Shown here: piece after piece, positions 1 to 36,036 of the stretch
Layout: every line of letters begins with the position of its first letter
Numbering within the stretch: the first letter of the stretch is position 1
Source of the DNA: a virus
Lineage: Duplodnaviria > Heunggongvirae > Uroviricota > Caudoviricetes
IMG/VR virus record: IMGVR_UViG_2740892231_000012
Strand: one strand, 5' to 3'
Length of the DNA: 41,599 bases
Program-made: the position numbers and the translations under genes
Notes under the pieces: generated by a model
What the model was told of the DNA's origin: nothing
The model's input: the letters and a program-made list of their open reading frames with translations, nothing else
Databases searched by the model: none

Positions 1-285
1 ATGATTATCAATAACGTCAAACTGGTGCTGGAAAACGAAGTGGTACACGGTTCGCTGGAGGTGCAGGATGGCGAAATCCGCGCCTTTGCCGAAAGCCAGA
101 GCCGCCTGCCAGAAGCGATGGACGGCGAAGGTGGCTGGCTACTACCCGGCCTGATTGAGCTGCATACCGACAACCTCGATAAATTCTTCACCCCGCGCCC
201 GAAAGTCGACTGGCCCGCCCATTCGGCGATGAGCAGCCACGACGCGCTGATGGTGGCAAGCGGCATCACCACCGTGCTGGTATAG
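1..285 (+). pseudogene. phnM: 5' fragment (94 aa) of a phnM-like gene (phosphonate C-P lyase pathway), ending at a premature stop at the prophage junction
   Basis: Translation MIINNVKLVLENEVV...SGITTVL matches my recollection of the E. coli PhnM N-terminus (about 378 aa in full). The reading frame stops at 283-285, immediately before AT-rich phage-end sequence. Confidence 0.6.
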
Positions 286-408
286 CGCGGCGATTTTTTT
301 GATACCGATTTGCATTTCATTTGATACCGCTGAAAAACGCCGATACGCAACTTATTTGATACTAAATCGGCGCTTTTCTTTTGGGTTTTAGAATGAGTTT
401 TTAAGCGT

Positions 409-1146
409 TCACTCACTCTCTTTTAAACCAGTTTTAACTGTTTGTGGTTTTGGGTAAGGCTGGACTTTGAATAGCTTTGTGTTGAGGCGTTTTCTGGCCC
501 TCTTGTTCAGAAACCGGATGTAACGAAACTGACGGAATTTATGAACACTGGCTCTGTCGATATTAGCCCTCAGATGTTCACCTCGCTGTCCGCCTCGTTT
601 AATGGCATTCCTGCAAATCTCGTGATACCACTCGCCATCAAGTTCATAGAATGTTGATTCGTGGCTGCCTACATAATCAAAATTGCTTGCCTGATACACG
701 ACACCAAGACAGCCACAACGCTCATCTGCAAACGACTGAACCCACTGTACCTGCGGATAAAGCTGCCTGATTAGCTTGAGCGCGTAACTGATTGCCCTTG
801 ATTCGGAGTTTCTCGGCATACAGTCATGCAGCCATAACCGGTTAAGCTCCATATATTCACGGTTCCGCGTGCCCGTTACGACGCGTGCACCACTGTTTGG
901 ATTAAGGGCATAGCCCCATTGCATTACGCCAACCAGCTCCCGTTCTGAAAATATGCCCAGATGAAGGTAGGAGTTATTTACGAAACGGTGGCTGTAATGT
1001 TTATTGACGATGACCAGTCTGGCCAGCCAGCAACTTATTGTCTCAACCCGCAACTCACGGGAGCCATAACCAACGATATTGTCGTTATAGCGAATAAGTT
1101 CAGGCGTGCTGATGATACGGGATGTGACTTGCTTTCTGTTCCCCAC
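409..1146 (-). CDS. mom: Mom-like DNA modification protein
   Basis: 245-aa ORF that is the last gene before the phage end and overlaps the 3' end of a Com-like zinc-finger ORF, as in the Mu com-mom operon. The true start may lie downstream of 1146. Confidence 0.65.
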
Positions 1147-1300
1147 GACAGGATTTCCTTGTGTATGTGGGGTGCTCTGTGGCGCTCGGAGATGTGATTT
1201 GATTGAGGGTTTTACAGCGCGGACATTTTACTTCCAGATAACTGAAACTGGCCCGTGCCAGTAGCTTATTGCAGTGTCGGCACCGTATGTTTCGATACAT
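1100..1300 (-). CDS. com: Com-like zinc-finger translational activator of mom
   Basis: Contains [10 protein letters not shown]...VKCPRCKTL, two CxxC pairs as in Mu Com. Internal ATG at 1300 has an AGGAGG 9 nt upstream; the longer ORF reaching 1345 is probably not translated. Overlaps the mom start. Confidence 0.7.
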
Positions 1301-1342
1301 GGCCGCATAACCTCCTGCTTTGTTGTTGATGCCTTTCTCATG

Positions 1343-1490
1343 CAATCGATCGACAAAAACGATCGATTCGATTTGTTTAATTGATACAACAAATAGATTG
1401 AAAAGTCATCAACAATGATTCAGGGAGGTGATTATTTACTTAAAGAAAACGAAGAGTTAGCGAGTGAAAACGATCATAAAATGATCATTT
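1343..1490 (-). promoter_or_regulatory. GATC-rich region upstream of com-mom, candidate Dam-methylation-sensitive mom promoter region
   Basis: Several GATC sites clustered just upstream of com (in CGATCGAC and ACGATCGATT near 1345-1365, and CGATCAT and ATGATCAT near 1470-1490). In Mu, the mom promoter is controlled by Dam methylation of upstream GATC sites. Confidence 0.4.
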
Positions 1491-1573
1491 TATTGACTTT
1501 TTATCCAGTGAAGGTAGGATCGCGCGTATATGTAGTATGTTTCAAATCAACAGGATACTACATAAAAGGGAAA

Positions 1574-1612
1574 CCCAGCATAGCTGGAACTATGCTGGGT
1601 CAATCTGTAAAA
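1574..1612 (-). terminator. Candidate rho-independent terminator for leftward transcripts (perfect 10-bp inverted repeat followed by a T-rich run on the minus strand)
   Basis: CCCAGCATAG-ctggaa-CTATGCTGGG at 1577-1602. On the minus strand the stem is followed by TTTCCCTTTTAT. Confidence 0.4.
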
Positions 1613-1707
1613 ACTTGCATCAATGCTTTACTTCGAGCTCGTGGCGTATCCTATGATATTCCCCGGTCTCCTGTAAAGCAGAGATGCATAAAAAGGAGAT
1701 CTTTATC

Positions 1708-1878
1708 ATGGATAAAGAGCCTGTTTGCCCTGCCTGTAAGACTCCCTTACAGCTCATCTATCGCCGTTCTCGATCTCAAAATGGCAAGACATACAAACCA
1801 AAAAATGCTTCCTGTTTCAGGATGCTGATATGTCCTGCCTGTTCTCCCCGGAGGGAAAATACACAAAACGTGCATTAA
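1708..1878 (+). CDS. Small hypothetical zinc-ribbon protein (56 aa, CPAC...CPAC)
   Basis: ATG at 1708 is preceded by AAGGAG at good spacing. Two CPAC motifs. It is the only plus-strand ORF inside the cargo block. No homology recognised. Confidence 0.35.
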   Translation: MDKEPVCPACKTPLQLIYRRSRSQNGKTYKPKNASCFRMLICPACSPRRENTQNVH

Positions 1879-1916
1879 CAAATTCACCCGGCAGGGAAAC
1901 CTGCCGGTCGGTATTG

Positions 1917-2162
1917 TTACATCATAGTACCGTCAGTTCCGGGCTGAACCGGCTCTGGTTGCTCTACGGCTTGAGGCTCATTCTCCGTGCTGTTTTCAGC
2001 CGGAGAATGGCCAACCATTCGGGCCAGCACTTCATCAACATATGCGTCGATTTGTGCCTCAAAATCCTTGCGAACCTGCGCCTTCAGCACGCGGTTCACT
2101 TCTTCAGAATAAAGTGCCTGTTTGACAAGCTCTTCAGTAACCGTGCCTTTAATCTCTGGCAT
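1917..2162 (-). CDS. Hypothetical protein (81 aa, acidic and Pro-rich C-terminus)
   Basis: ORF co-oriented with the esterase, with GGAGAA ahead of the ATG. No homology recognised. Confidence 0.4.
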   Translation of the reverse strand: MPEIKGTVTEELVKQALYSEEVNRVLKAQVRKDFEAQIDAYVDEVLARMVGHSPAENSTENEPQAVEQPEPVQPGTDGTMM

Positions 2163-2197
2163 GAATATTCTCCTTTTGCAGGTATATTGCCCCGTTA

Positions 2198-2380
2198 TCA
2201 GAGCGGGGTCGGGTCGTTTGGGGATGACGGTGCCTGTGCTGTTTTACTGAGTTTTTCAGCTGCCGCATCATCAATTTTACGGCGAATATAATTTCTGATG
2301 ACCTTATAACCGCCGCTCACCAGATATAACGCACTGACCACTGCGCAGAAATAAAGCAGCATTGTATGAACGAATGTCAT
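2198..2380 (-). CDS. Hypothetical small membrane protein (60 aa, one predicted TM helix)
   Basis: Hydrophobic N-terminal segment LLYFCAVVSALYLVSGG followed by a basic stretch. Co-oriented with the esterase. Confidence 0.35.
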   Translation of the reverse strand: MTFVHTMLLYFCAVVSALYLVSGGYKVIRNYIRRKIDDAAAEKLSKTAQAPSSPNDPTPL

Positions 2381-2526
2381 ATAACCTTACCTTTGATATT
2401 GACTACATAATTCGTTATCGGGTAAAAACATCGAAGCGACTGATAACCACTCCTTCGGGAGTATTTTTATTTTCCTTTATGGGTTAGGTAGCTCCCGCCA
2501 GCCATATCATGACCGGCGGGATTTTT

Positions 2527-4566
2527 TTATTCTGTTACCGCTTTTTTCACTTCCACCACAATGCTGTCAATCAGCACCGGGTAAGTTGCATTTTTTGTGA
2601 TATCCGTTACGCGGAGTTTGTCCACCGGGAAAGTTCCTACTGGTGACTGCGTCAGGGTAAACGCGGCACCATCCTGACCATCAATAACCGGAATAACCTG
2701 AAGGCTGTTATTTCCTGCAAAACGGAAGGCCAGCGTATGCCATTCATTATCAAATGCACCAAAGGTTCCCAGTTTCTGGTTATTTGTTGCCACTTTTGCA
2801 TTGTGGTACATCACATTCAGGTCTTTTGCGTCTGTCTGGATGTAGAACGATGCCAGCAGATTATTCCCTGCATCCCCTGTCAGGGTGACACCCTGCGGCA
2901 GAGAGGAAACCGGCCAGTAAAGCGCCATGACATACTGGTTTGCCACCAGGTCGCCCGGTACTTTAAAACGACAACTGATTAAACCACCATTTTTCAGCAG
3001 TTCAGCACCAGTACCGGCATCATGATCCAGATACCAGGATGATTTACCTGTTTCCTTGGTCAGTTTCATTGCCTTACCACCTGTGCCTCCTGCATCACTG
3101 ATAATTTCAGCTTTACCGCCAGCCGGCTCCCAGCCCTGGGCTTTCAGATTTCCTTCTGACTCACTGACACGGTAAGACAGCAGTGTTGTGGTTACTGCTT
3201 CAGTTTCTGAAGGTGACGGCACTGGTGCTTCAGTTTCAGAAGATGGAACATCGGCTTTTACTGTGGTTCGCCCCGCATGAGTCAGAACTGCCGTGGCCAG
3301 ACGGTCGGAAATAATCCCACGACGTGCCCATGAACTGAAATGGCTGGCCCGGTCCGTAGATGTCCAGGTGGCGGCACTGTTACGCCACGTTGAGCCGTAA
3401 TAACCAATGGATTCAATATCCGGGTCTTCTGCCGGATTGTTGGTGGGTACATTCGCGCCATTTTCATCTGTCATTAATGGGACGAAATGAATGTTTTTAT
3501 CTGTTTTATTTTTGTAGCCGTCATAGATTGCCTGGTATGCCTGTTCGTTTTTCTGTTTCCAGAAATACGTGGTATCACCACAAATCCACGGAACGCCAGC
3601 AGCACTGCCACCGGTACACTGTTCCGCCTGTTCAGCCAGGTCTGCGCGGAATTTTTCCACCATCGCCAGAAACAGCGCAGAATGCTCCGTCGGCTTCGCA
3701 TCAATATCAAACTCGCCCTGCATCCACACCACAGCAAGCAGGCGGTTTTTCGGGTTCTTCGCCAGTGCCGCTTTTGTCCGGCTGATTAAGTCCTTATACA
3801 GCGGCTTATCCACACCCCAGCGGGCTGAGTCCTCTGAAGCACCCGTGCTGTCACTGTACGTGCCGTCAGCACCCACCGTGAATGCAGAACCACCACGGCA
3901 GCAGGGAACCAGCAGAATCCCCGCATCTGCCGGAATAAACGGCAGCAGTTTTTTGGCAATGTGAAGCCCCTGACCCACGGTGCCATATTGCCCTTTAGCC
4001 ACATCCGCTTTCGGGTGATTTTTTCCACTCATATCCTGCACATCATGCAGACAGTGGTCGGCCAGAATGATGTCGTTATACTGACAGGCTTTACCTCCCG
4101 GCGTGACTGTACTGCGACGGGCTAACTGCATAATACGCGGTTCGGGGCGGTCATATGTCTCCGGCAGTGGCAGACCTTCACCGTAAGCCATACCGTTTGA
4201 CTGACCAGCAAGAACCACCACGTAATACCAGGAAGGGGAGCTGGAAGCAGTTTCATTTCCTGACGGACGGGTATGTGTTTCAGCATTATCCCAGTCTGAC
4301 GGTTCAGCAGTACCGGCAACATCAGCACTTAACGGAATGACCGCACCAATACCCGCTCCGGTAATTTCCACACTCGGATCACCGGATACTGGCCTTACCC
4401 ACAGGCAATCCCGGGTATTAAAACTGATGAGACAGTCAGCAAATGTCATTCCTCCTTTTGTTTCGGCCGGAGGAAAGGGAGCCTCAAGAAATGCCGCTGT
4501 ACCACCGGAAACTTTAACAGTAAAGTTTCCGGGCATTGATGATAGTTGAACCCATTTGGACGTCAT
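2527..4566 (-). CDS. Putative carbohydrate esterase, sialate O-acetylesterase (SASA/DUF303) family, resembling prophage NanS-p; cargo gene
   Basis: 679-aa ORF with VVVLAGQSNGMAYGEG, which matches the GQSN catalytic-serine motif of SASA-family SGNH esterases. Long C-terminal domain looks like a carbohydrate-binding module. Sits between gin and com, where Mu has no gene. Confidence 0.6.
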   Translation of the reverse strand: MTSKWVQLSSMPGNFTVKVSGGTAAFLEAPFPPAETKGGMTFADCLISFNTRDCLWVRPVSGDPSVEITGAGIGAVIPLSADVAGTAEPSDWDNAETHTRPSGNETASSSPSWYYVVVLAGQSNGMAYGEGLPLPETYDRPEPRIMQLARRSTVTPGGKACQYNDIILADHCLHDVQDMSGKNHPKADVAKGQYGTVGQGLHIAKKLLPFIPADAGILLVPCCRGGSAFTVGADGTYSDSTGASEDSARWGVDKPLYKDLISRTKAALAKNPKNRLLAVVWMQGEFDIDAKPTEHSALFLAMVEKFRADLAEQAEQCTGGSAAGVPWICGDTTYFWKQKNEQAYQAIYDGYKNKTDKNIHFVPLMTDENGANVPTNNPAEDPDIESIGYYGSTWRNSAATWTSTDRASHFSSWARRGIISDRLATAVLTHAGRTTVKADVPSSETEAPVPSPSETEAVTTTLLSYRVSESEGNLKAQGWEPAGGKAEIISDAGGTGGKAMKLTKETGKSSWYLDHDAGTGAELLKNGGLISCRFKVPGDLVANQYVMALYWPVSSLPQGVTLTGDAGNNLLASFYIQTDAKDLNVMYHNAKVATNNQKLGTFGAFDNEWHTLAFRFAGNNSLQVIPVIDGQDGAAFTLTQSPVGTFPVDKLRVTDITKNATYPVLIDSIVVEVKKAVTE

Positions 4567-4860
4567 AATAATCAGCCTGTTCCTGAATAAACTGAATTAT
4601 CATATCCACAGACCGATAAACGCCATTTTGCGTTAATTCAGTAAAGGCCCAACAAAGGGAGCGTCTTATTTTTCCGAAACGCTCGCAGGATAATAACGAT
4701 AAAGGGTTGAAAGGCCGATATCAAAAATAAGTGCCACCTGTCTTCGACTGACACCCCCGGCCAGTAAACGCCCAACCTGCTCGTATTGTTCCTGCGTGAG
4801 ACGGCGGGGTCTGCCGCCGGTTCGTCCCCTTTCACGGGCAGCNNNNNNNNNNAGAGCGTC

Positions 4861-5603
4861 TTATTTTTCCGAAACGCTCGCAGGATAATAACGATAAAGG
4901 GTTGAAAGACCGATATCAAAAATAAGTGCCACCTGTCTTCGACTGACACCCCCGGCCAGTAAACGCCCGACCTGCTCGTATTGTTCCTGCGTGAGACGGC
5001 GGGGTCTGCCGCCGGTTCGTCCCCTTTCACGGGCAGCTGCAAGACCAGCCCGTGTCCGTTCGACAATTAATTCACGCTCCATTTCTGCCAGCGCACCCAT
5101 TATGTGAAAAAAGAAGCGCCCCATGGGGGTTGACGTATCAATGTTGTCAGTAAGACTACGAAAATTTATCCCCTGTTGCTGTAATTCATCTGTCAGCGCA
5201 ACAAGGTGGCGCATACTGCGCCCCAGCCTGTCCAGTTTCCAGACCATCAGCGTGTCACCGGGTTTTAGTTTCTTCAGTGCCCGCTTCAGTCCCGGCCGCT
5301 GTGTCGTTTTACCACTCATTTTGTCTTCAAAAATCTGCTCACATCCTGCACATTCCAGCGCATTTCTTTGTAAACCGGTGTTNNNNNNNNNNACATACTG
5401 CGCCCCAGCCTGTCCAGTTTCCAGACCATCAGTGTGTCACCGGGTTTTAGTTTCTTCAGTGCCCGCTTCAGTCCCGGCCGCTGCGTTGTTTTTCCGCTCA
5501 TTTTGTCTTCAAAAATCTGCTCACATCCTGCACATTCCAGCGCATTTCTTTGTAAACCGGTGTTCTGGTCATTTGTTGATACGCGTATATAGCCAATCAG
5601 CAT
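4861..5603 (-). CDS. gin: Gin DNA invertase (serine recombinase); coordinates include an N10 gap at 5383-5392 and its duplicated flank
   Basis: MLIGYIRVSTNDQNT...GDTLMVWKLDRLGRSM...INFRSLTD...GRFFFHIMGALAEMERE is closely similar to Mu Gin / Hin-family invertases. A second copy of the gin 3' end at 4666-4842 is a gap-flank duplicate. Confidence 0.9.
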
Positions 5604-5665
5604 GTATTTACCTTCCTTAAAAAGAGGTGGAAAAGCCTTTTAAAGCAGATATACGGCATCCCTGA

Positions 5666-5692
5666 AACCTCGGTTTACGGGATACGGTAAAC
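5666..5692. promoter_or_regulatory. gix-like recombination site, right boundary of the invertible segment
   Basis: AACCTCGGTTTACGGGATACGGTAAAC resembles the Mu gix core and is an inverted copy of the site at 7206-7232. Lies directly upstream of gin. Confidence 0.6.
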
Positions 5693-6037
5693 AGGGCCGC
5701 GAATGCCCTGCCATCAAACGGTACGGCTGTTGCAGCAAGCAGGCTGGCAAATGCCCGCAGAATCAATGGTGTCGCCTTTGACGGCACGCAGGATATAAAC
5801 ATTACGTCAGGAATGCCGGAATCAACGGCCAATCAGCGTTATGTTACAGGGGTAAGACTGGGAGCGCAGGCATTAAGCGGCGGACTGGAATATAATTACT
5901 CCCTGTCATCAGGAAATGTGATTACCGGTTTTAAGACTGACGGAGACTGGGAAATGCGTGGTGGTGATGACCGTGTTTATTACAGACAGATACAATATTG
6001 TATTAATGGGCATTGGGTATCCGCTGCAAGTATTTAA
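5681..6037 (+). CDS. Silent alternative tail-fibre C-terminal cassette (S'v-like), promoterless in this orientation
   Basis: Translation DTVNRAANALPSNGTAVAASRLANARRINGVAFDGTQDINITSGM... parallels the S segment ...TVNKAADALPSGGTAVAANRLATPRNINGVPFDGTLDINITSGM. C-terminal YYRQIQYCINGHW parallels YYRPVQIYINNAW in S. Confidence 0.6.
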   Translation, partial: DTVNRAANALPSNGTAVAASRLANARRINGVAFDGTQDINITSGMPESTANQRYVTGVRLGAQALSGGLEYNYSLSSGNVITGFKTDGDWEMRGGDDRVYYRQIQYCINGHWVSAASI

Positions 6038-6158: not shown

Positions 6159-6810
6159 ATGCAACTGATTAATGTCAAACGATATTACCCGAAAGACAAA
6201 CCCTATGGTGAGGATGTTCAGTATTTCCAGAGTGAGGACGGAAGGGATTTTTATGAATCTATCCCGCTTTTTACAAAGAAATACAAACTCTGTATTTCGC
6301 CTGTAACGGGTATTATCTGCTCTGTTGCTGAAGATGTCTCTGCTTTATATCCGGCAGGTTTTACTGTTGTTGAAGTGGACGAACTGCCGGAAGGTGTGAA
6401 TATTGACGGTAACTGGCAGTTTTCTGATGGCCTGATATCAAAGGTGCCGGTAAACTGGAAGACGGTTGCTGAAAAGCGCCGCTCATCGCTGCTCCAGGAA
6501 GCCAACGAAACTGTGGATGACTGGAAAACGGAATTAAAACTGGACATGATTAGCGATGAAAATAAATTACAGCTGACGCGCTGGATGGCGTATATCCGNN
6601 NNNNNNNNTCGCTCATCGCTGCTCCAGGAAGCCAACGAAACCGTGGATGACTGGAAAACAGAATTAAAACTGGACATGATTAGCGATGAAAATAAATTAC
6701 AGCTGACGCGCTGGATGGCGTATATCCGACAGCTTAAAGAAATGCACCTTAATGATATTGCCAGTGAGGGGCATTACCAGGCGATTCCCTGGCCGGAAAA
6801 ACCGGAATAA
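6159..6810 (+). CDS. Tail-fibre assembly protein (U/Tfa family); includes N10 gap at 6599-6608 and duplicated flank
   Basis: Similar to Mu U: ...GIICSVAEDVSA..., ...FTVVEVDELPEG..., and C-terminal ...MISDENKLQLTRWMAYIRQLKEM...IPWPEKPE. Confidence 0.75.
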
Positions 6811-6844
6811 TTCAGAGGGTGCATTCAGCACCCTTTTCTGTGGT

Positions 6845-7756
6845 TTACACTGAACTTACCGTTCTCCAGGCATTATTAATATAAATCTGAACCGGGCGAT
6901 AATAGACCCCACCGATATTGTCCGCAGACCGGGAGCCGGTTTCCTGCACGTTAATACCGGAAAGCATACAACCGGAAGGTGCGCTGTAATTCCATGACAT
7001 TTCATTGCCTCCGGGTGAATGATAGCTCTGTGCTCCAAGCTGAACATTCTGTACATACCGGCCATCTGCGGTTGACTGCGTCATTCCTGACGTGATGTTG
7101 ATATCCAGCGTTCCGTCAAAAGGAACACCATTAATATTTCTTGGGGTGGCGAGTCTGTTTGCTGCCACGGCGGTTCCACCCGATGGCAGGGCATCAGCAG
7201 CCTTATTTACCGTTTCCCGTAAACCGACGTTATCGATAAAAGCGCCTTTATCCGGAATGTCTGCGCCGTTCTGCTCCCTGCGCAGGTAACGGTTATCACC
7301 TTCGCTTTTGCTGTAAACATCCAGATTATTACGGGCGGTTCCCGCATTCTCCAGGTCGGCAAGGTTCTGATCCTTCGCCAGAGCATTAACGTCACCGGGA
7401 CCAAGACTGTTTTTTGTGGCAAGCGCCCCAAGACCAAGATAACCACGGGCAAGACGCTGGGCTTCCGCACCGGCATCAGCAATTTCTTTCAGGTTGTTTT
7501 TCCGGGAAAAGGCATTCGCAGCGATAATGGCTTTAATGGACAGCGTAAGCTGGTTTAACTGCGCCTTATCCGGCTGAATACTGGCTTCAGCCAGAATATT
7601 CAGCAGTTCGGCCTGGAGAATATTCAGCCAGTCCTGACCAATCCAGCTGATACCTTTTTGTCCGTCACCTTCGGTAAACCAGGTGGTGGTATTACTCTGC
7701 GCCGGAGCCAGTTCAGGCATATTCGCCACGCCGGAATTATTATCAACATGGAACAT
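6845..7756 (-). CDS. Tail fibre protein S (constant part plus currently expressed variable C-terminus)
   Basis: Start MFHVDNNSGV uses an ATG overlapping the stop of the upstream baseplate gene (TAATG), preceded by GAGGAG. Contains the gix-like site at the constant/variable junction. Confidence 0.75.
   Translation of the reverse strand: MFHVDNNSGVANMPELAPAQSNTTTWFTEGDGQKGISWIGQDWLNILQAELLNILAEASIQPDKAQLNQLTLSIKAIIAANAFSRKNNLKEIADAGAEAQRLARGYLGLGALATKNSLGPGDVNALAKDQNLADLENAGTARNNLDVYSKSEGDNRYLRREQNGADIPDKGAFIDNVGLRETVNKAADALPSGGTAVAANRLATPRNINGVPFDGTLDINITSGMTQSTADGRYVQNVQLGAQSYHSPGGNEMSWNYSAPSGCMLSGINVQETGSRSADNIGGVYYRPVQIYINNAWRTVSSV
7206..7232. promoter_or_regulatory. gix-like recombination site inside the S coding sequence, left boundary of the invertible segment
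   Basis: TTACCGTTTCCCGTAAACCGACGTT is the inverted counterpart of the 5666-5692 site. Confidence 0.6.
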
Positions 7757-8316
7757 TAAATATTCTCCTCTTCGTGACTGTTTGCATATACGTAAATAAA
7801 CGTCTGCCATGCAGGCTTATAACGGTTCAGAATACATTCCAGCGCACCACCCTCATAAATACGCAGCGGGGTGAGAATATCATCCAGCACATTCATATTC
7901 CGGTAGCCGGTTTCACTGTTTATCGTGACAATACTGACCCACTGTGAATCCGGTGATGGCTGAATATCTATTTCATAACCAAACTCTGCCGCAAACCGGA
8001 TATAAAATTCACGGTTCAGCGAAGGCTTCATCCGGTATTTATTCCCGGCATAACGCTGTCGTTCTGTGATGGTGGCTCCGGCCATATCACACTCGGGAAG
8101 GCCGAGATAACGCTCCCAGTCTTCCAGAAGCAGACGGGAACTGTCAGGGAAACGTTCTGCCAGCAGTTGTTTTCCCGTCCATGCAACACGTTCGGTGGAA
8201 TGGCTGAGGCCAAGGCATAACGCAGCCAGTACGGATGACGGCCGCTTGTCCCAGGCCAGTCCGTCAGGCAGCAACTGCAACAGGGCGCGCTGATGCGGAG
8301 TGAGGGTTACAGCCAT
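7756..8316 (-). CDS. Baseplate protein (Mu gp48-like)
   Basis: 186-aa ORF placed between the baseplate J-like gene and the tail fibre gene, as in Mu; translationally coupled to both. Confidence 0.6.
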   Translation of the reverse strand: MAVTLTPHQRALLQLLPDGLAWDKRPSSVLAALCLGLSHSTERVAWTGKQLLAERFPDSSRLLLEDWERYLGLPECDMAGATITERQRYAGNKYRMKPSLNREFYIRFAAEFGYEIDIQPSPDSQWVSIVTINSETGYRNMNVLDDILTPLRIYEGGALECILNRYKPAWQTFIYVYANSHEEENI

Positions 8317-9392
8317 GTGATTTCCCCCACTGTCAGCAGCTCACTGTCCCCCGCCTGAACCGACGTCAGCGGGCTGCGCACTTCAAAATCCTCCAGATTT
8401 TTCACCCCCGCCACGGCACGCCAGAAAGACGACGCCAGAACCAGACCGCCGGGCCGGGATTCGTTGTATAACAGGTCAGTCAGTGCCTGTTTTACGGCCG
8501 CCTGATTCTCCGGTGTTTTCGGGATGATCCTGATACTGAAGGGCACTGGCTTATTGGTCAGTTTAAACACGGTCACCGTCGGCCCCAGCGGCTGACCGAC
8601 AGGCTGACCGGTCGCCGGATCATCATGACTGCGGATATAATCCGCCACACGTTTCACATCACCTTCACCGGGAAAAATGTCCGGGTTGTTGTCCTGAACG
8701 AACGTCACCCCCACGCTGCCCGCCTGCGGCCATTCCGGGCGGCACCATGCCCGCGTCACCCCCGGCACTTCACGCGCCCAGCGTTCAAAATCGTACTGCG
8801 TGCCGCCGGACGGCGGATTCTGCACCCGGAAAACCAGGCGGGAAAGCAGCTCCGGCACTGTTTCCACATCCGCACCACCGGTGATCCCTGTTCCGGTCAC
8901 CGTGGCCGTCTGGTTGATCCCCGCCTGCGGAGTGACAAACGTCAGTTTCGTCCCTGCCGGGGCATTTCCCGCACGACCGGCACTTTCGGCCTCCACACTG
9001 ACATTCAGCGTACCGGCTTTACCGGTCAGTGAGGAGGTGATGCGGTAAACCACGCCGTCACTGCGCTGGAGAAGCACACCTTCCGTGATCCCCGCATCCG
9101 TGGTCAGCATCAGCTGAACCGGCCCGTCACCCCGTGAGGCGGGTTTACGCATGACACCCCAGAAAGCGCAGTGCTTCAGCAACTCGGCTTCATCGGCTTC
9201 TGTCGGGATGATCTGACGTGCAATCCAGGCCAGATGTTCATGCTCCTGTGCAGACAATCCTGCCTGAGCATACGCAATGGCATTCAGGGTGGTTTCATTC
9301 ACGCCCGGCTGCGAACCGGGAAGACGCTGGCTGATATCCTGCTGTGTCTGCGTGATTAATTGTGCCAGCGGTAAAGGCTGATAAGGCATCAC
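8307..9392 (-). CDS. Baseplate J-like wedge protein (Mu gp47-like)
   Basis: 361 aa, at the baseplate J position between the gp46-like and gp48-like genes. Confidence 0.7.
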   Translation of the reverse strand: MMPYQPLPLAQLITQTQQDISQRLPGSQPGVNETTLNAIAYAQAGLSAQEHEHLAWIARQIIPTEADEAELLKHCAFWGVMRKPASRGDGPVQLMLTTDAGITEGVLLQRSDGVVYRITSSLTGKAGTLNVSVEAESAGRAGNAPAGTKLTFVTPQAGINQTATVTGTGITGGADVETVPELLSRLVFRVQNPPSGGTQYDFERWAREVPGVTRAWCRPEWPQAGSVGVTFVQDNNPDIFPGEGDVKRVADYIRSHDDPATGQPVGQPLGPTVTVFKLTNKPVPFSIRIIPKTPENQAAVKQALTDLLYNESRPGGLVLASSFWRAVAGVKNLEDFEVRSPLTSVQAGDSELLTVGEITWL

Positions 9393-9826
9393 TCCCCCTT
9401 AAGATCAGCATAAAAAATCATGGGTCTTACCGAACCATCAGGCAGGGTTATGCGCACCGAAAGCGCCAGCCGCGCGTGTCCCACACGTTCTGCATGACAG
9501 ACCACGGATGACGCCACGCCATCCTGACTGAGCCAGCCCAGCGCCTCATCCGCGTAGGCACGGGCACGGCTTATCACGGAGACCAGCGTTTTTTCCCGGC
9601 TGAGAAGCCACAGACGGGAGCCAATGGGGCGCGGGCGAAAACTGTCTCCCCACCATCCCCGGCGGTCACGTGTGCCATCAGGGATTTCATCCGATGCCAG
9701 TGCCCGGCGGTCAGTAAACAGTGAAATCAGAACCGCTGTCAGCAGGCTGTCATCTGTCAGCAGGTCTGCACCGTTCAGTTGCAGCGAACCGCATCCCTGA
9801 TCCCACACAATTGCAATATCAGCCAT
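9389..9826 (-). CDS. Baseplate protein (Mu gp46 / gpW-like)
   Basis: Probable start MADIAIVWDQG...; the ORF track extends further 5' into the upstream gene. Position between the spike and J-like genes. Confidence 0.6.
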   Translation of the reverse strand: MADIAIVWDQGCGSLQLNGADLLTDDSLLTAVLISLFTDRRALASDEIPDGTRDRRGWWGDSFRPRPIGSRLWLLSREKTLVSVISRARAYADEALGWLSQDGVASSVVCHAERVGHARLALSVRITLPDGSVRPMIFYADLKGE

Positions 9827-10433
9827 TCTCCGGCGCTCCTGTCTTACTGCCTTCACCGTTATCATGATGTACATGGCCGGAATAGGTGATTCCCGCAATA
9901 ACAGCCTCGGACATCGTGAACGTACCCTGTGATTTTCCTGTGCCGTCAATGGTCAGATTACCTTTGATATGCAGGTTTTTATCCACCGTGACATTGCCCG
10001 TAAAGGTGGCTTCCGGTGTATCCACCTGAACACCTTCATCGGCGTAAATTTCCAGCGTCTTACAGGTCACAATGATCCGACCGTTCTTTGTCAGACGTAT
10101 ACGGTGCCCCTCATGGTGATACACGCCGGTATCTCCGGCAGTGAGTCCGGTCGGGCGACTGCGGCGGTCTTCCACCACAAGCACCACGGTCTGATCACGC
10201 TGCCCGCCCAGACAGGCAAAAAAGGTTTCCGCACCCGGCAGGGGAACACTGATCTGCCCGTACTGCTGGGGACGCTCCACATCATCAAAGGTTTCGCCGT
10301 CCATGCCGGTGAGCTGCACATTCTGCATTTTCAGTTCGTCATGTGTGCCGGTCAGAACGCCCCGGCCAAACAGCAGGCGAATGCCGCGCGTTACCGGGGC
10401 AATCAGGCGGCTGAACACTTCATCATTCATCAA
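9819..10433 (-). CDS. Baseplate assembly protein V / central spike (Mu gp45-like)
   Basis: 204 aa with Gly-rich C-terminal spike-like region (...NLTIDGTGKSQG...GHVHHDNGEG); syntenic position. Confidence 0.7.
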   Translation of the reverse strand: MMNDEVFSRLIAPVTRGIRLLFGRGVLTGTHDELKMQNVQLTGMDGETFDDVERPQQYGQISVPLPGAETFFACLGGQRDQTVVLVVEDRRSRPTGLTAGDTGVYHHEGHRIRLTKNGRIIVTCKTLEIYADEGVQVDTPEATFTGNVTVDKNLHIKGNLTIDGTGKSQGTFTMSEAVIAGITYSGHVHHDNGEGSKTGAPENG

Positions 10434-11547
10434 AGCTAATCCCCTGTTTTTTCATCTGCTGGCGAATAAAGGCATCAACATCATCACCGGAACCACCACG
10501 GCCCTTACTGTCCGGCTCTGCCGGAACGATAAAGCCGTCACGCGGTGCCAGTACCAGCCGGGTGACTTCCCCGTTCTGCTCATCCAGTAAAAACTCCACC
10601 TGGCAGACCAGCAGTTCAGTCTGTTCGATACCGAAACGCAGGGCTGAAACACCGGTCAGCAGATTGACATCCCATAACCGGCCATCATCCCGGAACCAGC
10701 CACGCACGGTGGCGGAAAACCGTTCTGAACGGGCAACCGCACGGCGCATCTCCCGCAGGGCGCGCTGCCGTGCACCGGTGGTGTCTGTCTGCTGATCGGC
10801 GAGGATGATTTTCGGCCGGTAGCGACCGATCTGCTCATCACTGATGATGCCCACTGGGGCCGCCAGCCGGGCGGCAGATTCGCTGTCTCCCCGTTTGCCA
10901 CCACCGCGTCCATGCCCCCGGACACGGTATTCGCTGTATCGTCCTCGCCAGTCCGTGTTGTAATCGGCATCAAGCAGGTTTTCCCCCAGCACCAGTCTGT
11001 CCGTCTGCTGATTTCCTGCCTGGGTGAACACCAGATCACCGTCAGCATTACTGGTCACCAGCACCCCACGATGCCGGGCCGCACGGGTCAGCGCATCCGC
11101 CACGGTTTCTGAGTTTTCCAGGGTAAAAGAGCTGAAGGGGCGTGCAGCCGTGTCGTCGTTAACCTGCCAGCGCACGGCTATTCCGAAGGGCGCACATAAA
11201 TCTGCGGCAATCTGTGCCAGCGTCCGGTTTCGCCACTGGCTGCCGGGATGGATGGCGGCACAGTCCACCAGGTCGCCGGTTTTATCCCGACCGTTAATGC
11301 TGATCTGATGACGGGTTGCACTGATCCGCTGACTGACCTGATCCAGCCAGCCACTGATGACAGTCTGCCCGTTAATTCTGAGCGTCAGGGACTGACCGGT
11401 CCGCAGGGCTGAGGGGATGCGCTCACCGGGCAGCATCAGCCCCAGTTCAAACGACCCGGCCAGATGCTCCAGAGAACGACGGACGCTTACCGTCAGCCAG
11501 CCGGAAAAAATACTGCCGCCAATATACAGCTCAATCCTGCTGCTCAC
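10423..11547 (-). CDS. Baseplate hub / late-control gpD-like protein (Mu gp44-like)
   Basis: 374 aa, immediately downstream of the DNA circulation protein, as in Mu. Confidence 0.7.
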   Translation of the reverse strand: MSSRIELYIGGSIFSGWLTVSVRRSLEHLAGSFELGLMLPGERIPSALRTGQSLTLRINGQTVISGWLDQVSQRISATRHQISINGRDKTGDLVDCAAIHPGSQWRNRTLAQIAADLCAPFGIAVRWQVNDDTAARPFSSFTLENSETVADALTRAARHRGVLVTSNADGDLVFTQAGNQQTDRLVLGENLLDADYNTDWRGRYSEYRVRGHGRGGGKRGDSESAARLAAPVGIISDEQIGRYRPKIILADQQTDTTGARQRALREMRRAVARSERFSATVRGWFRDDGRLWDVNLLTGVSALRFGIEQTELLVCQVEFLLDEQNGEVTRLVLAPRDGFIVPAEPDSKGRGGSGDDVDAFIRQQMKKQGISFDE

Positions 11548-12889
11548 TAATCACCTCCACACTGCGACCACCAGGAACAAAAACCGGATCAGGGATGTTG
11601 TTCCTGCGGACAAAATACTGCCAGCGACGGCTGTTGCCGGTGGCACGGTACAGCGTGACCAGTGCCGGTTCGGTGGTTCTCACCATGACCAGAGAAGCAC
11701 CGGGAAGATGCACGCTACGCGTTGTTAAATCCTCTGTCAGCGCAAGCCTGGCATCACGTAATGCAAGGGCGGTTCCGGTATGGCCCTGTGCGGACAAATC
11801 CAGCACCTGTTGTTCCAGGGCATCACTCAAATCCCGGTTGATCCGCTGCACATCGGCAGAACTTTCCAGCCAGGCCAGTCCGCCCTCCCGGTCTGTATCC
11901 TGAACGTGCGTCGCACTCTGCCGGACGACCTGATCCAGCAGTTTTCCTACCGTCTGCGCCTGTGACACCAGGGTTGCGCTCTGCATGACTGTCCGCAGCA
12001 GACGGATATTTTTCTGTGCCGCAGGCGTCAGACCAATCAGGATCTGCGGATCATCCTGCCCGCTGAGGGTATAACGCAGGGAAGAAAGTGTGCGGTACAG
12101 TTGCGGCATTGCCTGCTCTGTCATGCTGTCACGATTTGTGGTCAGGCTGCCGGACGGCGTTGCGGCCTTCCCGGTCAGTGACAGGGAAGGATCGCCGGGC
12201 AGTCCCGTCAGCACCGCAAACATTCCGGCCAGAGATTCAGCCATGCGACGGGGCGAATTAATCAGGGCGGCAGCATTCCCTTTCAGGGCAGTGAAACTGG
12301 CCGTAAAGGCACTGATATCCTGCACAATCCCCATTCCCGAAACGGCATTCTCCAGCGCATCAATTTTATCGCTGATGGTGTCGGTCATGGCCTGCACATC
12401 ATGCAGGCCGTCTGAAATCACTGTCCAGCTGTCTGAAAGCGTGTTAAACAACTGATTCATTGCTGAACCGCTTTTCTGCTCCAGAACGGCAGCCGTGTCT
12501 TCAGCCACCGCCGGTGCGGTATCGTCACTGGCGGGGATCGCGTTGATCGTGAACTCAACCGTTCCCTGTTCGCTGGCGTTATAACGGCTTTCAAAGCTGT
12601 TTATCAGCACATTTAAGGTGCCGTAATCCGGGTGCATCAGTTCACCGGCACCGGGTGCCCGCAGCGCATCCCGCAGGCGGCTTCGCTGCGTCTGAAGATC
12701 ATCGCCGATCACAAGAGCCGTGAATGTAAACTCCGGGAGTTTTGGCCCTAAATCATCCGCGCCGCCGCTTTCCCGCAGAGGATATTCACGGCGTACAATG
12801 TTACGTCCGCCCCGTTCCCGTTGTTCCTGATAAACCAGAAACGGTACACCACGAAAGGAGCCACGCCCCGGCGTGTCAGTAGAGGCCAT
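11531..12889 (-). CDS. DNA circulation protein (Mu gp43-like)
   Basis: 452 aa, directly downstream of the tape measure gene, as in Mu. Confidence 0.7.
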   Translation of the reverse strand: MASTDTPGRGSFRGVPFLVYQEQRERGGRNIVRREYPLRESGGADDLGPKLPEFTFTALVIGDDLQTQRSRLRDALRAPGAGELMHPDYGTLNVLINSFESRYNASEQGTVEFTINAIPASDDTAPAVAEDTAAVLEQKSGSAMNQLFNTLSDSWTVISDGLHDVQAMTDTISDKIDALENAVSGMGIVQDISAFTASFTALKGNAAALINSPRRMAESLAGMFAVLTGLPGDPSLSLTGKAATPSGSLTTNRDSMTEQAMPQLYRTLSSLRYTLSGQDDPQILIGLTPAAQKNIRLLRTVMQSATLVSQAQTVGKLLDQVVRQSATHVQDTDREGGLAWLESSADVQRINRDLSDALEQQVLDLSAQGHTGTALALRDARLALTEDLTTRSVHLPGASLVMVRTTEPALVTLYRATGNSRRWQYFVRRNNIPDPVFVPGGRSVEVISEQQD

Positions 12890-15097
12890 AGTTCCCTCCG
12901 TTCCAGACGTTCACATCCAGGCCATGCTGTGCGGTATCATCCACATCAATACTGCGTGCCCGCCAGCCTTCAGGGGCCACAAGCTCCACCCGTGCGGCGG
13001 TTTTCGCGGTGGCCTGTCCGCCATTTTCATCACTGCCCCGTAATTTCTGCCAGGCTTCGGTCAGCCATCCCCCCAGATAATCACCGAGATAACTGCCCAC
13101 CGTGGAGCCAATGGCAACCCCGACCGGACCGGCGGCAGCCCCCAGCGCGCCACCGGCGATACTTCCGGCAAGGGAACCCATGGCACCGGCTTTATCAGCT
13201 GCACTGGCGCTGTTGTCCAGCAGTACAGGAGCCGCCATGGCACCGGCCCACAGGGCACCACCGCCCAGCCGACCGGCACCACGGAACAACCCGGCAAAAC
13301 GCCCCAGCCCCATGCGGTTTCCGGCAGCCGAAAGCAGACCACCGGCACGGCTCATCATACGACCGAAGAAGCCCTGTTTACCGGCGCTCTCTGCCAGTTG
13401 TTCGCCTGCGGTCACAACGGTCGGGACACCCCGCCCACGTCCGGGGCCGCGTTTTTTACGGCCGCGCACGGTTTTGCCGTCACCGCTGACCACCACATCC
13501 CCGCCACCTGATGCCAGACCACCCGCAGGCCAGTTGGTGACCAGTACGGGCTGAACGGCAGCAGGATTTACCCCGGTAAGAAAGTTCATAAAACGCTGGC
13601 CGCGTCCTGGCTGCGTGCCCGGAACGGTGGTCTGCGGTTTACGAAAAGGCGAGGTCAGCACAGCGGCCGTGGATAACCCGTACCCCAACAATGCCGCCCC
13701 CGGTCGCAGTGCCCCAAGACCTATGGCGCGGACAGCCTTCAGCGCACGGGTGGCGAGATACATATACAGGAGATATTTCGCGGCGGTCTGTGCGCCCTGA
13801 CCAATGCGATCCAGCGCATCGCCATAACCAGCGTCACGCAATGCCTGAAGCGTTTCCCTGACTTTCTGAATGGCCCGGTAAAACCCCGTCGCTGCGTCTC
13901 TGGCATACTCAAACCCCTGATTCAGGGCTGAGGCTGTTTGTGTGGCCAGCTTGTCCTNNNNNNNNNNGCAATGCGATCCAGCGCATCGCCATAACCGGCG
14001 TCACGCAATGCCTGAAGCGTTTCCCTGACTTTCTGAATGGCCCGGTAAAAACCCGCCGCTGCGTCTCTGGCATACTCAAACCCCTGATTCAGGGCTGAGG
14101 CTGTTTGTGTGGCCAGCTTGTCCTGTAAGCCGCTTTTCTGTGCCGCATCGGCATAATCCAGGAAGCCTTTCAGGCTCTTTTTCAGGTTGTCAAATGGCCC
14201 TTTTGCCATTACTTCACGGGCAAATCCGTCCCAGACGTCGCCCATCATGGATGTCATCCCTGTCCATGAGTTCATGGCGTTTTTCTGGGCACCTTTTGCC
14301 TGTTCGGCCATCACCTGAAATAACAGCCGAATGCTGTCCGGTCCCAGTTTTCCTTTCTCGCCTTTCTCACGGATGATCTTCTGGTTTACACCCAGTTTAT
14401 CGGCCAGCAACTGGTAAACGTTTATCCCGTATCCGGTCAGGATACTGGCGTCCGCAGCCTGGATACTCTGGCGGGCAAACATCTGTTTGAGTTGCAGGGA
14501 CGCACCCTGTGCATCTGACAGTGACCAGCCGTGATAGCCGCCCTGATCCTGAAGCATGGTAATAAAGCGGCGGGCTTCCCTGTCACTCATACCGAACCCG
14601 CGACTGGAGGCGTATTCCTGCATAACCCCCGCCAGTCCCCAGGTGGTTTCCTTTGCGTTCTGTACCGCCCAGGCTTTCACTGCTTCCGTTTTTGCCGTAT
14701 CGCCATGATTAATGGCATTGAGACGCAGAATATAGTTCTCCATCTCTGCGGCCGGGCGGATAAAGGCTTTATTAAAACCATAGACCGCAGCCCCTCCTGC
14801 CAGCATCCCGTAAAGGTTGCTGAGACGTCCCAGCGTGCCGGTAATACTGCCCTGAAGACGGTCAAAATCCGACGTTACCGTGCGGATACTGCCACGGACA
14901 CCGGCAAGCGTACGCTGCATACGGGAGCCGACAAGCTCTGTCTCCTGACCGGCACGGCGGGCTGCATTTCCAATTCCACCCAGCCCCGTCCTGCCGACTC
15001 GGGAGAACGCCCCCAGCTCCTGTGACCACTGGCGGGATTTGGCAGAAACATTGCCGAGTAAATCGACAATCAGGGAGGCTTTCAGGTTTTTTGCCAT
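12876..15097 (-). CDS. Tail tape measure protein; interrupted by N10 gap at 13958-13967 with duplicated flanks
   Basis: Long, Ala/Gly-rich, largely helical ORF between the tail chaperone and DNA circulation genes. The track splits it into 391-aa and 321-aa pieces at the gap. Confidence 0.8.
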
Positions 15098-35505: not shown

Positions 35506-36036
35506 TTATTTATTCAGTCCGGCGTCCTGTTCAAAAGGCTCGACATAAAAACTTTCAGCGCCTTTATTCACCTTAATACCGGCAATCCCTTTCACCGCAT
35601 CCGGCTCCGCCAGGACCGCTTCCTTGTTCACTTCCTCTTTCGTGCGGATAAAACGCTCAAGGCCCATACGGCGCAGCATTTCAATCACACCTTCCACATC
35701 ACGACTGACGCTGCATGATGGATTCCCCAGTCGCCATGACACCGTTCCGGTGGTCAGATTGGCAGTTTTGGTTTTGCCGCCGTTCGTCAGCTCATCACGG
35801 TTGGTTTTGCACCAGTCCTGAATCCCCTTAAAAAGCACTTTGATTTCTTTTTTAAGGTTTTCAATCTGCGGCGTATAACGGGCGGTGATTTCTGCCACTT
35901 CATCATTCATCGCTGTTTCCAGGCGCAGCGCCTCTCGCTGAATATCGCCCAGGGTGCGGATATCGCGGCTGACCTCTTCACGGGTCTGCGGTGCCGCCTC
36001 TGCTGCGGCCTTTAATTTTGTAACGCGTTTTGCCAT
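35506..36036 (-). CDS. gam: Gam host-nuclease inhibitor (Ku-like DNA end-binding protein)
   Basis: Close similarity to Mu Gam: ...LGDIQREALRLETAMNDEVAEIT..., ...WCKTNRDELTNGGKTKTANLTTGTVSWR..., ...LERFIRTKEEVNKEAVL.... Confidence 0.9.
   Translation of the reverse strand: MAKRVTKLKAAAEAAPQTREEVSRDIRTLGDIQREALRLETAMNDEVAEITARYTPQIENLKKEIKVLFKGIQDWCKTNRDELTNGGKTKTANLTTGTVSWRLGNPSCSVSRDVEGVIEMLRRMGLERFIRTKEEVNKEAVLAEPDAVKGIAGIKVNKGAESFYVEPFEQDAGLNK

Follow-up and report, generated by a model that had tools for sequence, protein, structure and literature searches.

A probable NanS-p-class sialate O-acetylesterase with a lineage-specific N-terminal domain between gin and com-mom of Sp18-type Mu-like prophages

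The IMG/VR virus record IMGVR_UViG_2740892231_000012 (41,599 nucleotides, here called the window) consists almost wholly of one Mu-like prophage, and the region considered here is the block of genes between its G-segment invertase gene gin and the com-mom pair at its right end. The minus strand of the window corresponds to the rightward strand of phage Mu. On it the genes are found in the order gin, a gene for a 679-amino acid (aa) esterase, a DUF1378 gene, a DUF826 gene, a variable slot, com and mom, with 99 bp between gin and the esterase gene (Table 1). The prophage is inserted in phnM, the 5' part of which lies at 1-285; the prophage end maps to ~276-281, and the alignment with prophage Sp18 of Escherichia coli O157:H7 Sakai begins at 281 and reaches 40945, and the window stops short of the left end of the prophage. 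It can be classified as Sp18-type, since it has a Mu-type right end (invertible tail-fibre segment, gin, com and mom) and is co-linear with Sakai Sp18.

A preliminary description of this DNA had noted that gin almost abuts com in Mu, which is correct (94 bp separate the end of gin at 35673 from the start of com at 35768), and had placed a foreign cargo block at 1346-4860. The extra DNA between the two genes is real, but the final ~195 bp of that range are an assembly artefact, and the true gin-to-com interval is 1301-4665 (3,365 bp). All the open reading frames (ORFs) listed for the block, namely those of 679 aa, a 60-aa membrane protein, an 81-aa acidic protein and an opposite-strand zinc ribbon, are present.

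The 679-aa protein is almost certainly, judging from its sequence, a phage-type sialic-acid O-acetylesterase of the NanS-p class, in agreement with the SASA/NanS-p likeness first proposed for it. The receptor-modifying role suggested alongside that likeness is speculative. Pfam matches were found to SASA (aa 116-313, 45.4 bits against a cutoff of 24.8) and DUF6645 (aa 524-642). The solved structure of E. coli NanS (YjhS, PDB 3PT5) was matched by aa 104-428 (E 1.8e-117), and that of the NanS-p C-terminal domain of phage phi24B (PDB 6YP6) by aa 459-674 (E 3e-112). BLASTP against the NanS-p of Shiga toxin 2 (Stx2) phage 1717 gave 78% identity over aa 102-673 and nothing before aa 102. At NCBI the exact protein is named 'sialate O-acetylesterase / DUF6645 domain-containing protein', in a 90%-identity cluster of 1,046 members.

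The active site of NanS comprises Ser19, His301 and the oxyanion residue Gln18, without a catalytic Asp (PMC9063846). Ser123 (nucleophile), Gln122 (oxyanion) and His409 of the esterase aligned to Ser19, Gln18 and His301, respectively; in the chain numbering of 3PT5, Ser19 and His301 are Ser30 and His312. Of the Ser/His/Asp triad that had been anticipated, Ser and His are kept, while the Asp was a wrong expectation, as NanS works with a Ser-His pair. The block motifs of the protein, GQSN (Gln122 and Ser123) and RASH (His409), are those of active NanS-p alleles (PMC10462455). The C-terminal domain, described beforehand as carbohydrate-binding in appearance, is indeed a lectin-like jelly-roll, in which Y545, Y550, Y575 and F646 correspond to Y510, Y515, Y540 and F611 of vb_24B_21, the four aromatic residues proposed as the sugar site of the phi24B C-terminal domain (PMC10462455). 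Activity on both Neu5,9Ac2 and mucin is known for the NanS-p enzymes of EDL933 and O104:H4 (PMC8065619).

The ORF is intact, and the ratio of nonsynonymous to synonymous substitution rates (dN/dS) was 0.04-0.25 across its three domains (0.09-0.17 in the catalytic domain and 0.17-0.25 in the C-terminal domain), while both linkers are relaxed (~0.5). No signal peptide was found; the highest 19-residue hydropathy among segments starting in the first 60 residues was 0.82. The protein thus has the SASA domain, active-site residues and DUF6645 aromatics of the NanS-p class, and lacks its DUF1737 domain and its lambdoid location. A match to DUF1737 had been anticipated, but none was found in the Pfam scan, and the BLASTP alignment with phage 1717 NanS-p leaves the N-terminus uncovered; in the same kind of scan, the phage 1717 protein showed DUF1737 (E 1e-15), SASA and DUF6645.

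The N-terminal domain is the sole real departure of this esterase from the Stx-phage enzymes, and takes the place of DUF1737. The Pfam scan assigned aa 1-80 to no family, and BLASTP found no similarity between them and the first 59 aa of phage 1717 NanS-p. Among 50,697 phage records, no relatives were found beyond two Stx-phage records containing an inserted Mu-like phage. A search of 1.84e9 representative proteins gave five matches, of which four were fragments of the same kind of esterase and the fifth, a weak one, was to an unrelated 1,445-aa repeat protein; an indexed search of 5.8 billion proteins returned E. coli, Shigella and Salmonella fragments only. Scanning genome contigs with the N-domain alignment produced 69 pattern matches, none of them confirmed. 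In the searches made, the domain was found only in esterases encoded directly downstream of gin in Mu-like contexts, and its allele tracks the neighbouring gin allele, not the baseplate or tail-fibre proteins.

On comparison of alleles, these 80 residues form a real domain under purifying selection. Against an allele of 59% identity dN was 0.28 with dS saturated, and against close alleles dN/dS was 0.04-0.09. AlphaFold, run on seven sequences, predicted six beta-strands over residues 1-78 (pLDDT ~80) followed by the disordered linker. Fold comparison was generic, with a best BFVD match of E 0.009 to uncharacterised phage proteins of 85-99 aa. The Salmonella allele (described below) matched phrog_4772, a family of stand-alone phage proteins 79 aa long and without assigned function, at E 6.8e-6, and the allele of the window did so at E 3e-3; tblastn of the Salmonella N-domain against the phage records, in search of members of PHROG 4772, found only the two inserted Mu-like phages. 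A possible paralogue within the prophage itself, a tblastn match (E 0.04) in a gp43-like 'DNA circulation' gene, was discarded after profile comparison (probability 0.3%).

The same arrangement was found in Sakai Sp18 (ECs_4943-4998), with ECs_4992 (invertase), ECs_4993 (2,040 bp), ECs_4994 (183 bp), ECs_4995 (246 bp), ECs_4996 (opposite strand), ECs_4997 (com) and ECs_4998 (mom), and 98.8% DNA identity across the block. Its differences from the window are allelic only, apart from its insertion in sorM instead of phnM and parts of the tail region at 77-85% identity. Six more complete genomes carry the esterase module in this order (2010C-3347, 97-3250, M1, S1-CAM-01-A, SW070917 and SMN197SH3), the SMN197SH3 copy being a decayed remnant. 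Searching IMG/VR with the N-domain returned 34 loci, which have gin, esterase, DUF1378, DUF826, com and mom wherever the contig reaches; the esterase is followed by com in 25 of them, and the remaining contigs end first. A short metagenome contig has an esterase with the same N-domain and a resolvase gene directly upstream. In a Salmonella enterica genome (GCA_037428405.1, locus L006, 8792-10461), the esterase follows a gin-type resolvase and its N-domain is 28% identical to that of the window; the contig also carries homologues of Mu gp45, gp46 and gp48, and tail fibres.

A census of 5,426 complete E. coli genomes found this com-mom in 233 and ≥80% of this 4.5-kb block in at least 168, while a second allele of the catalytic and C-terminal domains was present in 43. 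The alleles are mosaic: N-domains 96-100% identical to that of the window are joined either to this catalytic/C-terminal pair or to one 67%/38% identical, and the N-domain allele of 59% identity carries catalytic and C-terminal domains 70% and 73% identical. The second allele (L017 type) gave no megablast match to sequenced lambdoid phages in the phage collection. One non-full-length E. coli match to it, lying beside an integrase fragment, was inspected and turned out to be a decayed Mu-like remnant. Mosaicism is therefore demonstrated among Mu-lineage alleles only, and exchange with lambdoid alleles is not.

The block can be regarded as cargo in so far as it is absent from Mu, but a private or recent insertion is not borne out, since it is constant within the Sp18 lineage, where the identical layout of Sakai Sp18 makes these genes routine at this position in reference Mu-like genomes. 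By gene order, the esterase, DUF1378 and DUF826 appear to be a fixed accessory module of the Sp18 lineage, and cargo only relative to Mu. The module has been public since 2001, with Sakai Sp18, and the protein had already been named by NCBI; what is new is the architecture variant.

Some members of the lineage deviate around the module. In the prophages of M1 (L043, a mouse commensal) and S1-CAM-01-A (L046, a human commensal), gin is not annotated, the esterases are 689 and 684 aa long, and the gene lies ~300 bp from a tail-fibre assembly gene; in both, the tail-fibre segment may be fixed in a single orientation. In SW070917 (L045, NZ_CM129862.1, 4963-6169) a DNA cytosine methyltransferase gene follows com in the place of mom, as if the DNA-modification gene under Com control had been exchanged. 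At the Salmonella locus, gin and the esterase are separated by two additional small ORFs of 58 and 87 aa, neither with a Pfam match. The contig breaks off within the esterase, which is also where many draft contigs stop, probably since the catalytic domain is multi-copy.

Compared with known systems, the gin-com-mom right end of Mu, grouped here with those of D108 and SfMu, has homologous gin (73-76% nucleotide identity) and mom (71%) in the same order and orientation, but no esterase, DUF1378 or DUF826 gene. In SfMu the gin-mom polymerase chain reaction product is only 1.5 kb, and the block is apparently absent. The catalytic domain aligned in full with the chromosomal NanS, with the same three active-site residues and no catalytic Asp; NanS is a single-domain protein of ~330 aa encoded in the nanCMS operon, whereas the window esterase is phage-borne and has extra N- and C-terminal domains.

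The closest likeness is to the lambdoid NanS-p proteins (933W L0105/z1466; phi24B vb_24B_21, which is gp84; phage 1717 gp44), which share the SGNH domain, the GQSN and RASH blocks, the DUF6645 aromatics, disordered linkers, the lack of a signal peptide, a prophage location and DUF826 or DUF1378 genes downstream. At the DNA level, the catalytic and C-terminal domains share 78-81% identity with the nanS-p genes of ~300 Stx phages and their relatives. The lambdoid proteins begin with DUF1737, whereas the Sp18-type esterase has the unrelated 80-aa all-beta domain instead. Their genes lie between Q/stx and the holin gene S, in contrast to the position between gin and com-mom in a Mu-like myovirus, so neither Q antitermination nor SOS controls the Sp18-type copy, which is outside the Q/stx-S region. 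Phage 1717 has, in succession, Q, stx2AB, nanS-p, a DUF826-containing ORF and holin S, and DUF826 or DUF1378 genes have been reported between nanS-p and S (PMC10462455). At least the DUF826 partner thus accompanies the esterase in two phage backbones that are unrelated, a linkage which suggests, without being proof, joint action of the esterase and the small genes. The Mu-lineage DUF1378/DUF826 DNA had no match in the 50,697 phage records beyond the two inserted Mu-like phages, indicating that any transfer between the backbones is old.

We consider it likely that the product of the 679-aa gene is a functional sialate 9-O-acetylesterase of phage type and NanS-p class, and that the gene forms with DUF1378 and DUF826 a fixed module of the Sp18 lineage. 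By homology to assayed relatives, its type II SGNH domain would take the 9-O-acetyl group off Neu5,9Ac2, with Ser123 as nucleophile and His409 as base, and with an oxyanion hole made up of Gln122 and a backbone Gly; as in NanS, no catalytic Asp would be involved. The C-terminal jelly-roll could steer the enzyme to glycans, as the phi24B structure suggests. Having no signal peptide, the protein would remain cytoplasmic until phage lysis, or would be carried with the particle. Mucin sialic acids de-O-acetylated by it should become usable by sialidases and E. coli, which could benefit the lysogen in the gut, as argued in the NanS-p literature (PMC8065619). The N-terminal 80 residues would be a separate, selected beta-domain in place of the DUF1737 capsid anchor.

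Several observations weigh against this interpretation. A sigma-70 scan upstream of the esterase gave 6 matches against 6.3 expected, with no convincing promoter, and no shared late-promoter (C-dependent) motif rose above noise when the upstream regions of lys, I, P and com in Sakai Sp18 were compared with that of the esterase. Mitomycin does not induce Sp18 (PMC2669165), which would leave release by lysis dependent on rare spontaneous induction. E. coli hosts that make Shiga toxin (STEC) already carry lambdoid nanS-p, with a median of 3 and a maximum of 12 matching places per genome, which makes the added benefit of the Sp18-type copy questionable. The role of the N-domain is not accounted for by the proposed function. 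A literature search found no paper on ECs4993-4996 and none tying a sialate O-acetylesterase to an E. coli Mu-like prophage, the primary NanS-p papers being outside that search.

It is the N-domain that gives rise to another reading, which we regard as unlikely: that the esterase is a virion component, anchored by this domain to the Mu-like particle, where it would aid passage through or hold in O-acetylated sialomucus, or act at the bacterial surface. In phi24B, the DUF1737 of NanS-p is described as a capsid-decoration anchor, with gp84 on the capsid hexons (bioRxiv 10.64898/2026.04.10.717836), and it is precisely this domain that has been exchanged for another small one, again connected via a disordered linker. 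The confinement of the domain to post-gin esterases of Mu-like contexts and its purifying selection are consistent with such a role, as are the position of the gene directly after the tail-fibre and gin region, the BFVD fold matches to short uncharacterised phage proteins, and the weak kinship of the Salmonella allele to a PHROG of stand-alone proteins, DUF1737 being mostly stand-alone too. However, no co-variation with the particle was seen, as the 59% N-domain allele is found on baseplates of 93-98% identity and the 100% allele on baseplates of 75-80%; in addition, the gene lies beyond gin, outside the structural operons, and the N-domain model was built on seven sequences only, with no informative fold match. 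By analogy, phage NanS-type esterases might be modular 'anchor plus enzyme plus lectin' proteins with the anchor swapped per carrier phage, the 80-aa domain being the Mu-lineage counterpart of DUF1737 on the particle, a generalisation that we hold to be doubtful. The always-linked DUF1378/DUF826 pair could belong functionally to this unit as well.

Two further explanations have very little probability in our view. The first, that one Mu-like phage picked up part of the late region of a lambdoid Stx phage in a recent, sporadic event, as the term foreign cargo implies, would fit the absence of the block from Mu and apparently from SfMu, the similarity of the catalytic/C-terminal DNA to many Stx-phage nanS-p genes and the downstream DUF826 partner. 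It is very improbable because the layout was found in every Sp18-type right end inspected and in the Salmonella Mu-like prophage with its strongly diverged N-domain, because the DUF1378/DUF826 DNA is unmatched in the phage records save in the inserted Mu-like phages, and because the N-domain is not lambdoid; the saturated synonymous divergence between Mu-lineage alleles indicates that the acquisition was old. That the substrate is instead a bacterial surface polysaccharide (O-antigen or polysialic acid capsule, O-acetylated), modified for adsorption or superinfection exclusion and not for host nutrition, has been raised for NanS-p generally (PMC8065619), and the gene does adjoin the host-range (tail-fibre inversion) region and the enzyme has carbohydrate-binding-type domains at both ends. 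Yet the catalytic domain is closely NanS-like and 78% identical to lambdoid NanS-p, its relatives act on free and mucin-bound Neu5,9Ac2 (PMC8065619), and nothing points to a bacterial substrate, so that this explanation, too, seems remote.

NanS-p proteins have been discussed as fitness factors of STEC feeding on O-acetylated mucin sialic acids, and surveys have counted such enzymes in lambdoid prophages. A further intact copy is carried by a non-lambdoid, non-SOS-inducible phage found in ~4% of complete E. coli genomes, whose carriers include commensals that may have no other nanS-p copy. The basic picture of the NanS-p enzyme is unchanged. The most interesting point is the domain swap, because the Sp18-type copy differs exactly in the domain that the 2026 preprint cited above named as capsid anchor; if the anchor has been swapped, a transposable myovirus would display a mucin-editing enzyme on its virion. 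The occurrence of esterase, DUF1378 and DUF826 together in two unrelated backbones offers a natural experiment on the N-domains and the small partners.

Table 1. Genes, protein domains and intergenic elements of the gin-to-mom region, with their positions in the window.
Feature	Position	Strand	Basis
mom, DNA modification gene, right-end gene of the prophage	409-1146	-	Pfam Mom, E 4.5e-77; 71% nucleotide identity to Mu mom
com, translational activator of mom	1100-1300	-	Pfam Zn_ribbon_Com, E 3.3e-12; RefSeq annotation of near-identical genomes
Perfect 9-bp inverted repeat AATCGATCG-N7-CGATCGATT with two GATC sites	1344-1368		Sequence
13-bp hairpin followed by UUUCCCUUUUAU (U-rich tract on the Mu-rightward strand), inside the ECs_4996 ORF	1572-1601	-	-22.1 kcal/mol, z -4.7
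Orphan 56-aa zinc-ribbon ORF with two CPAC motifs	1708-1878 (alternative start 1684)	+	AAGGAG Shine-Dalgarno
GC-rich 8-bp hairpin between the convergent DUF826 and zinc-ribbon ORFs	1885-1912		-21.2 kcal/mol, z -4.1
81-aa acidic protein, DUF826 family	1917-2162	-	Pfam DUF826, E 2.1e-15; PHROG 311, E 2.6e-30
60-aa single-pass membrane protein, DUF1378 family	2198-2380	-	Pfam DUF1378, E 1.2e-38; PHROG 494
13-bp hairpin directly after the esterase stop	2489-2521		-23.2 kcal/mol, z -4.2; T-run on plus strand only
679-aa ORF, esterase	2527-4566	-	VVVLAGQSNGMAYGEG at aa 115-130
Esterase aa 459-679, lectin-like jelly-roll C-terminal domain (DUF6645)	2530-3192	-	Pfam DUF6645, E 4.1e-70; PDB 6YP6
Esterase aa 431-458, Pro/Ser/Thr/Glu-rich linker	3193-3276	-	Sequence; dN/dS ~0.55
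Esterase aa 113-430, NanS-type SGNH (SASA) catalytic domain	3277-4230	-	Pfam SASA, E 9.8e-12; PDB 3PT5, E 1.8e-117
Esterase aa 81-112, acidic linker, predicted disordered, ending ASSSPS	4231-4326	-	AlphaFold pLDDT <50; isoelectric point 4.05
Esterase aa 1-80, lineage-specific all-beta N-terminal domain	4327-4566	-	No Pfam match; AlphaFold model
gin, G-segment DNA invertase	4666-5603	-	Pfam Resolvase and HTH_7; 73-76% nucleotide identity to Mu gin

The scaffold is a draft, with 15 runs of N in the window, each of exactly 10 N. The flanks of three of the 15 runs (4843, 5383 and 6599) were mapped to the complete genome of E. coli 2010C-3347, which is 99.2% identical, and in each case both flanks were overlapping duplicates of ~120-185 bp with few single-nucleotide differences. 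Two of these runs, 4843-4852 and 5383-5392, interrupt gin. The former doubles the 3' end of the gene, so that the true stop is at 4666 and a second copy runs from 4861. The duplications create false ORFs with XXXX (for example at 4638-5066), and gin is seemingly in three pieces; in complete genomes it is intact (186 aa), and in 2010C-3347 it lies 99 bp upstream of the esterase gene, as in the window. RefSeq starts com at the ATG at 1300 (66 aa).

The two small proteins encoded after the esterase differ in character. The DUF1378 protein has one hydrophobic helix at aa 3-21 (mean Kyte-Doolittle 2.0) and an isoelectric point of 9.3, and the DUF826 protein is acidic (isoelectric point 4.36), with 16 Asp and Glu versus 7 Lys and Arg residues. 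Directly after the esterase stop is a hairpin which, as its T-run is on the plus strand only, would be a terminator of antisense transcription or a stabiliser of the 3' end of the esterase mRNA. The GC-rich hairpin between the convergent DUF826 and zinc-ribbon ORFs is probably a bidirectional terminator. A scan of 1-5700 against Rfam with E up to 1 gave a single match, a chance snoRNA.

The slot between DUF826 and com is variable. It was compared at 1301-1916 of the window and at loci L014, L020, L022, L023, L036, L040 and L041, and at least five different contents were seen, 463, ~616, 720, ~855 and 933 bp long. Small orphan ORFs with no relation to each other fill these cassettes, such as two convergent ones of 66-78 aa and 68-76 aa, or one of 97-101 aa, and no Pfam family was found for them. 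In the window, the stretch of ~600 bp holds the plus-strand zinc-ribbon ORF, which had only a weak Trm112p-like Pfam match (E 0.005, below cutoff) and no homologues beyond this locus type among 5.8e9 proteins. In RefSeq the plus-strand ORF is a frameshifted pseudogene of a 154-aa ORF (Sakai ECs_4996), split here by a 1-bp deletion. We think that only the 56-aa zinc-ribbon part is plausible as a gene and that the 154-aa fusion is accidental, an annotation artefact, because it is decided by a 1-bp indel, because the upstream part shifts frame and length between alleles (ORFs of 56 to 137 aa), and because that part holds the conserved 13-bp hairpin at 1572-1601.

The stem of this hairpin is kept in three variants by compensatory changes, including the loss of a whole base pair, and it is also found at ~4770-4800 of locus L001; it is probably a terminator or insulator shielding com-mom from upstream transcription. 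Closer to com, the perfect inverted repeat sits 44-68 nt upstream of the ATG and is invariant in a three-genome alignment. It may be the Dam-sensitive control region of the mom operon. There is a resemblance to the GATC cluster of Mu Pmom, which Dam and OxyR control, although the geometry differs.

The GC content of the block is 0.44-0.57, compared with ~0.46-0.52 in the flanks, and the variable slot is its only AT-rich part (0.39-0.40). Elsewhere in the prophage, the tail-fibre and baseplate region (6610-13376) has 77-85% DNA identity to Sakai Sp18, against ~90-99% for the right end and most other parts; the host-range region of the lineage is therefore mosaic. Across the lineage the insertion sites differ, with phnM in the window, sorM in Sakai Sp18, and others in bcsA, flgL, an Ig-like adhesin gene and further sites, which fits active transposition of the phage lineage.

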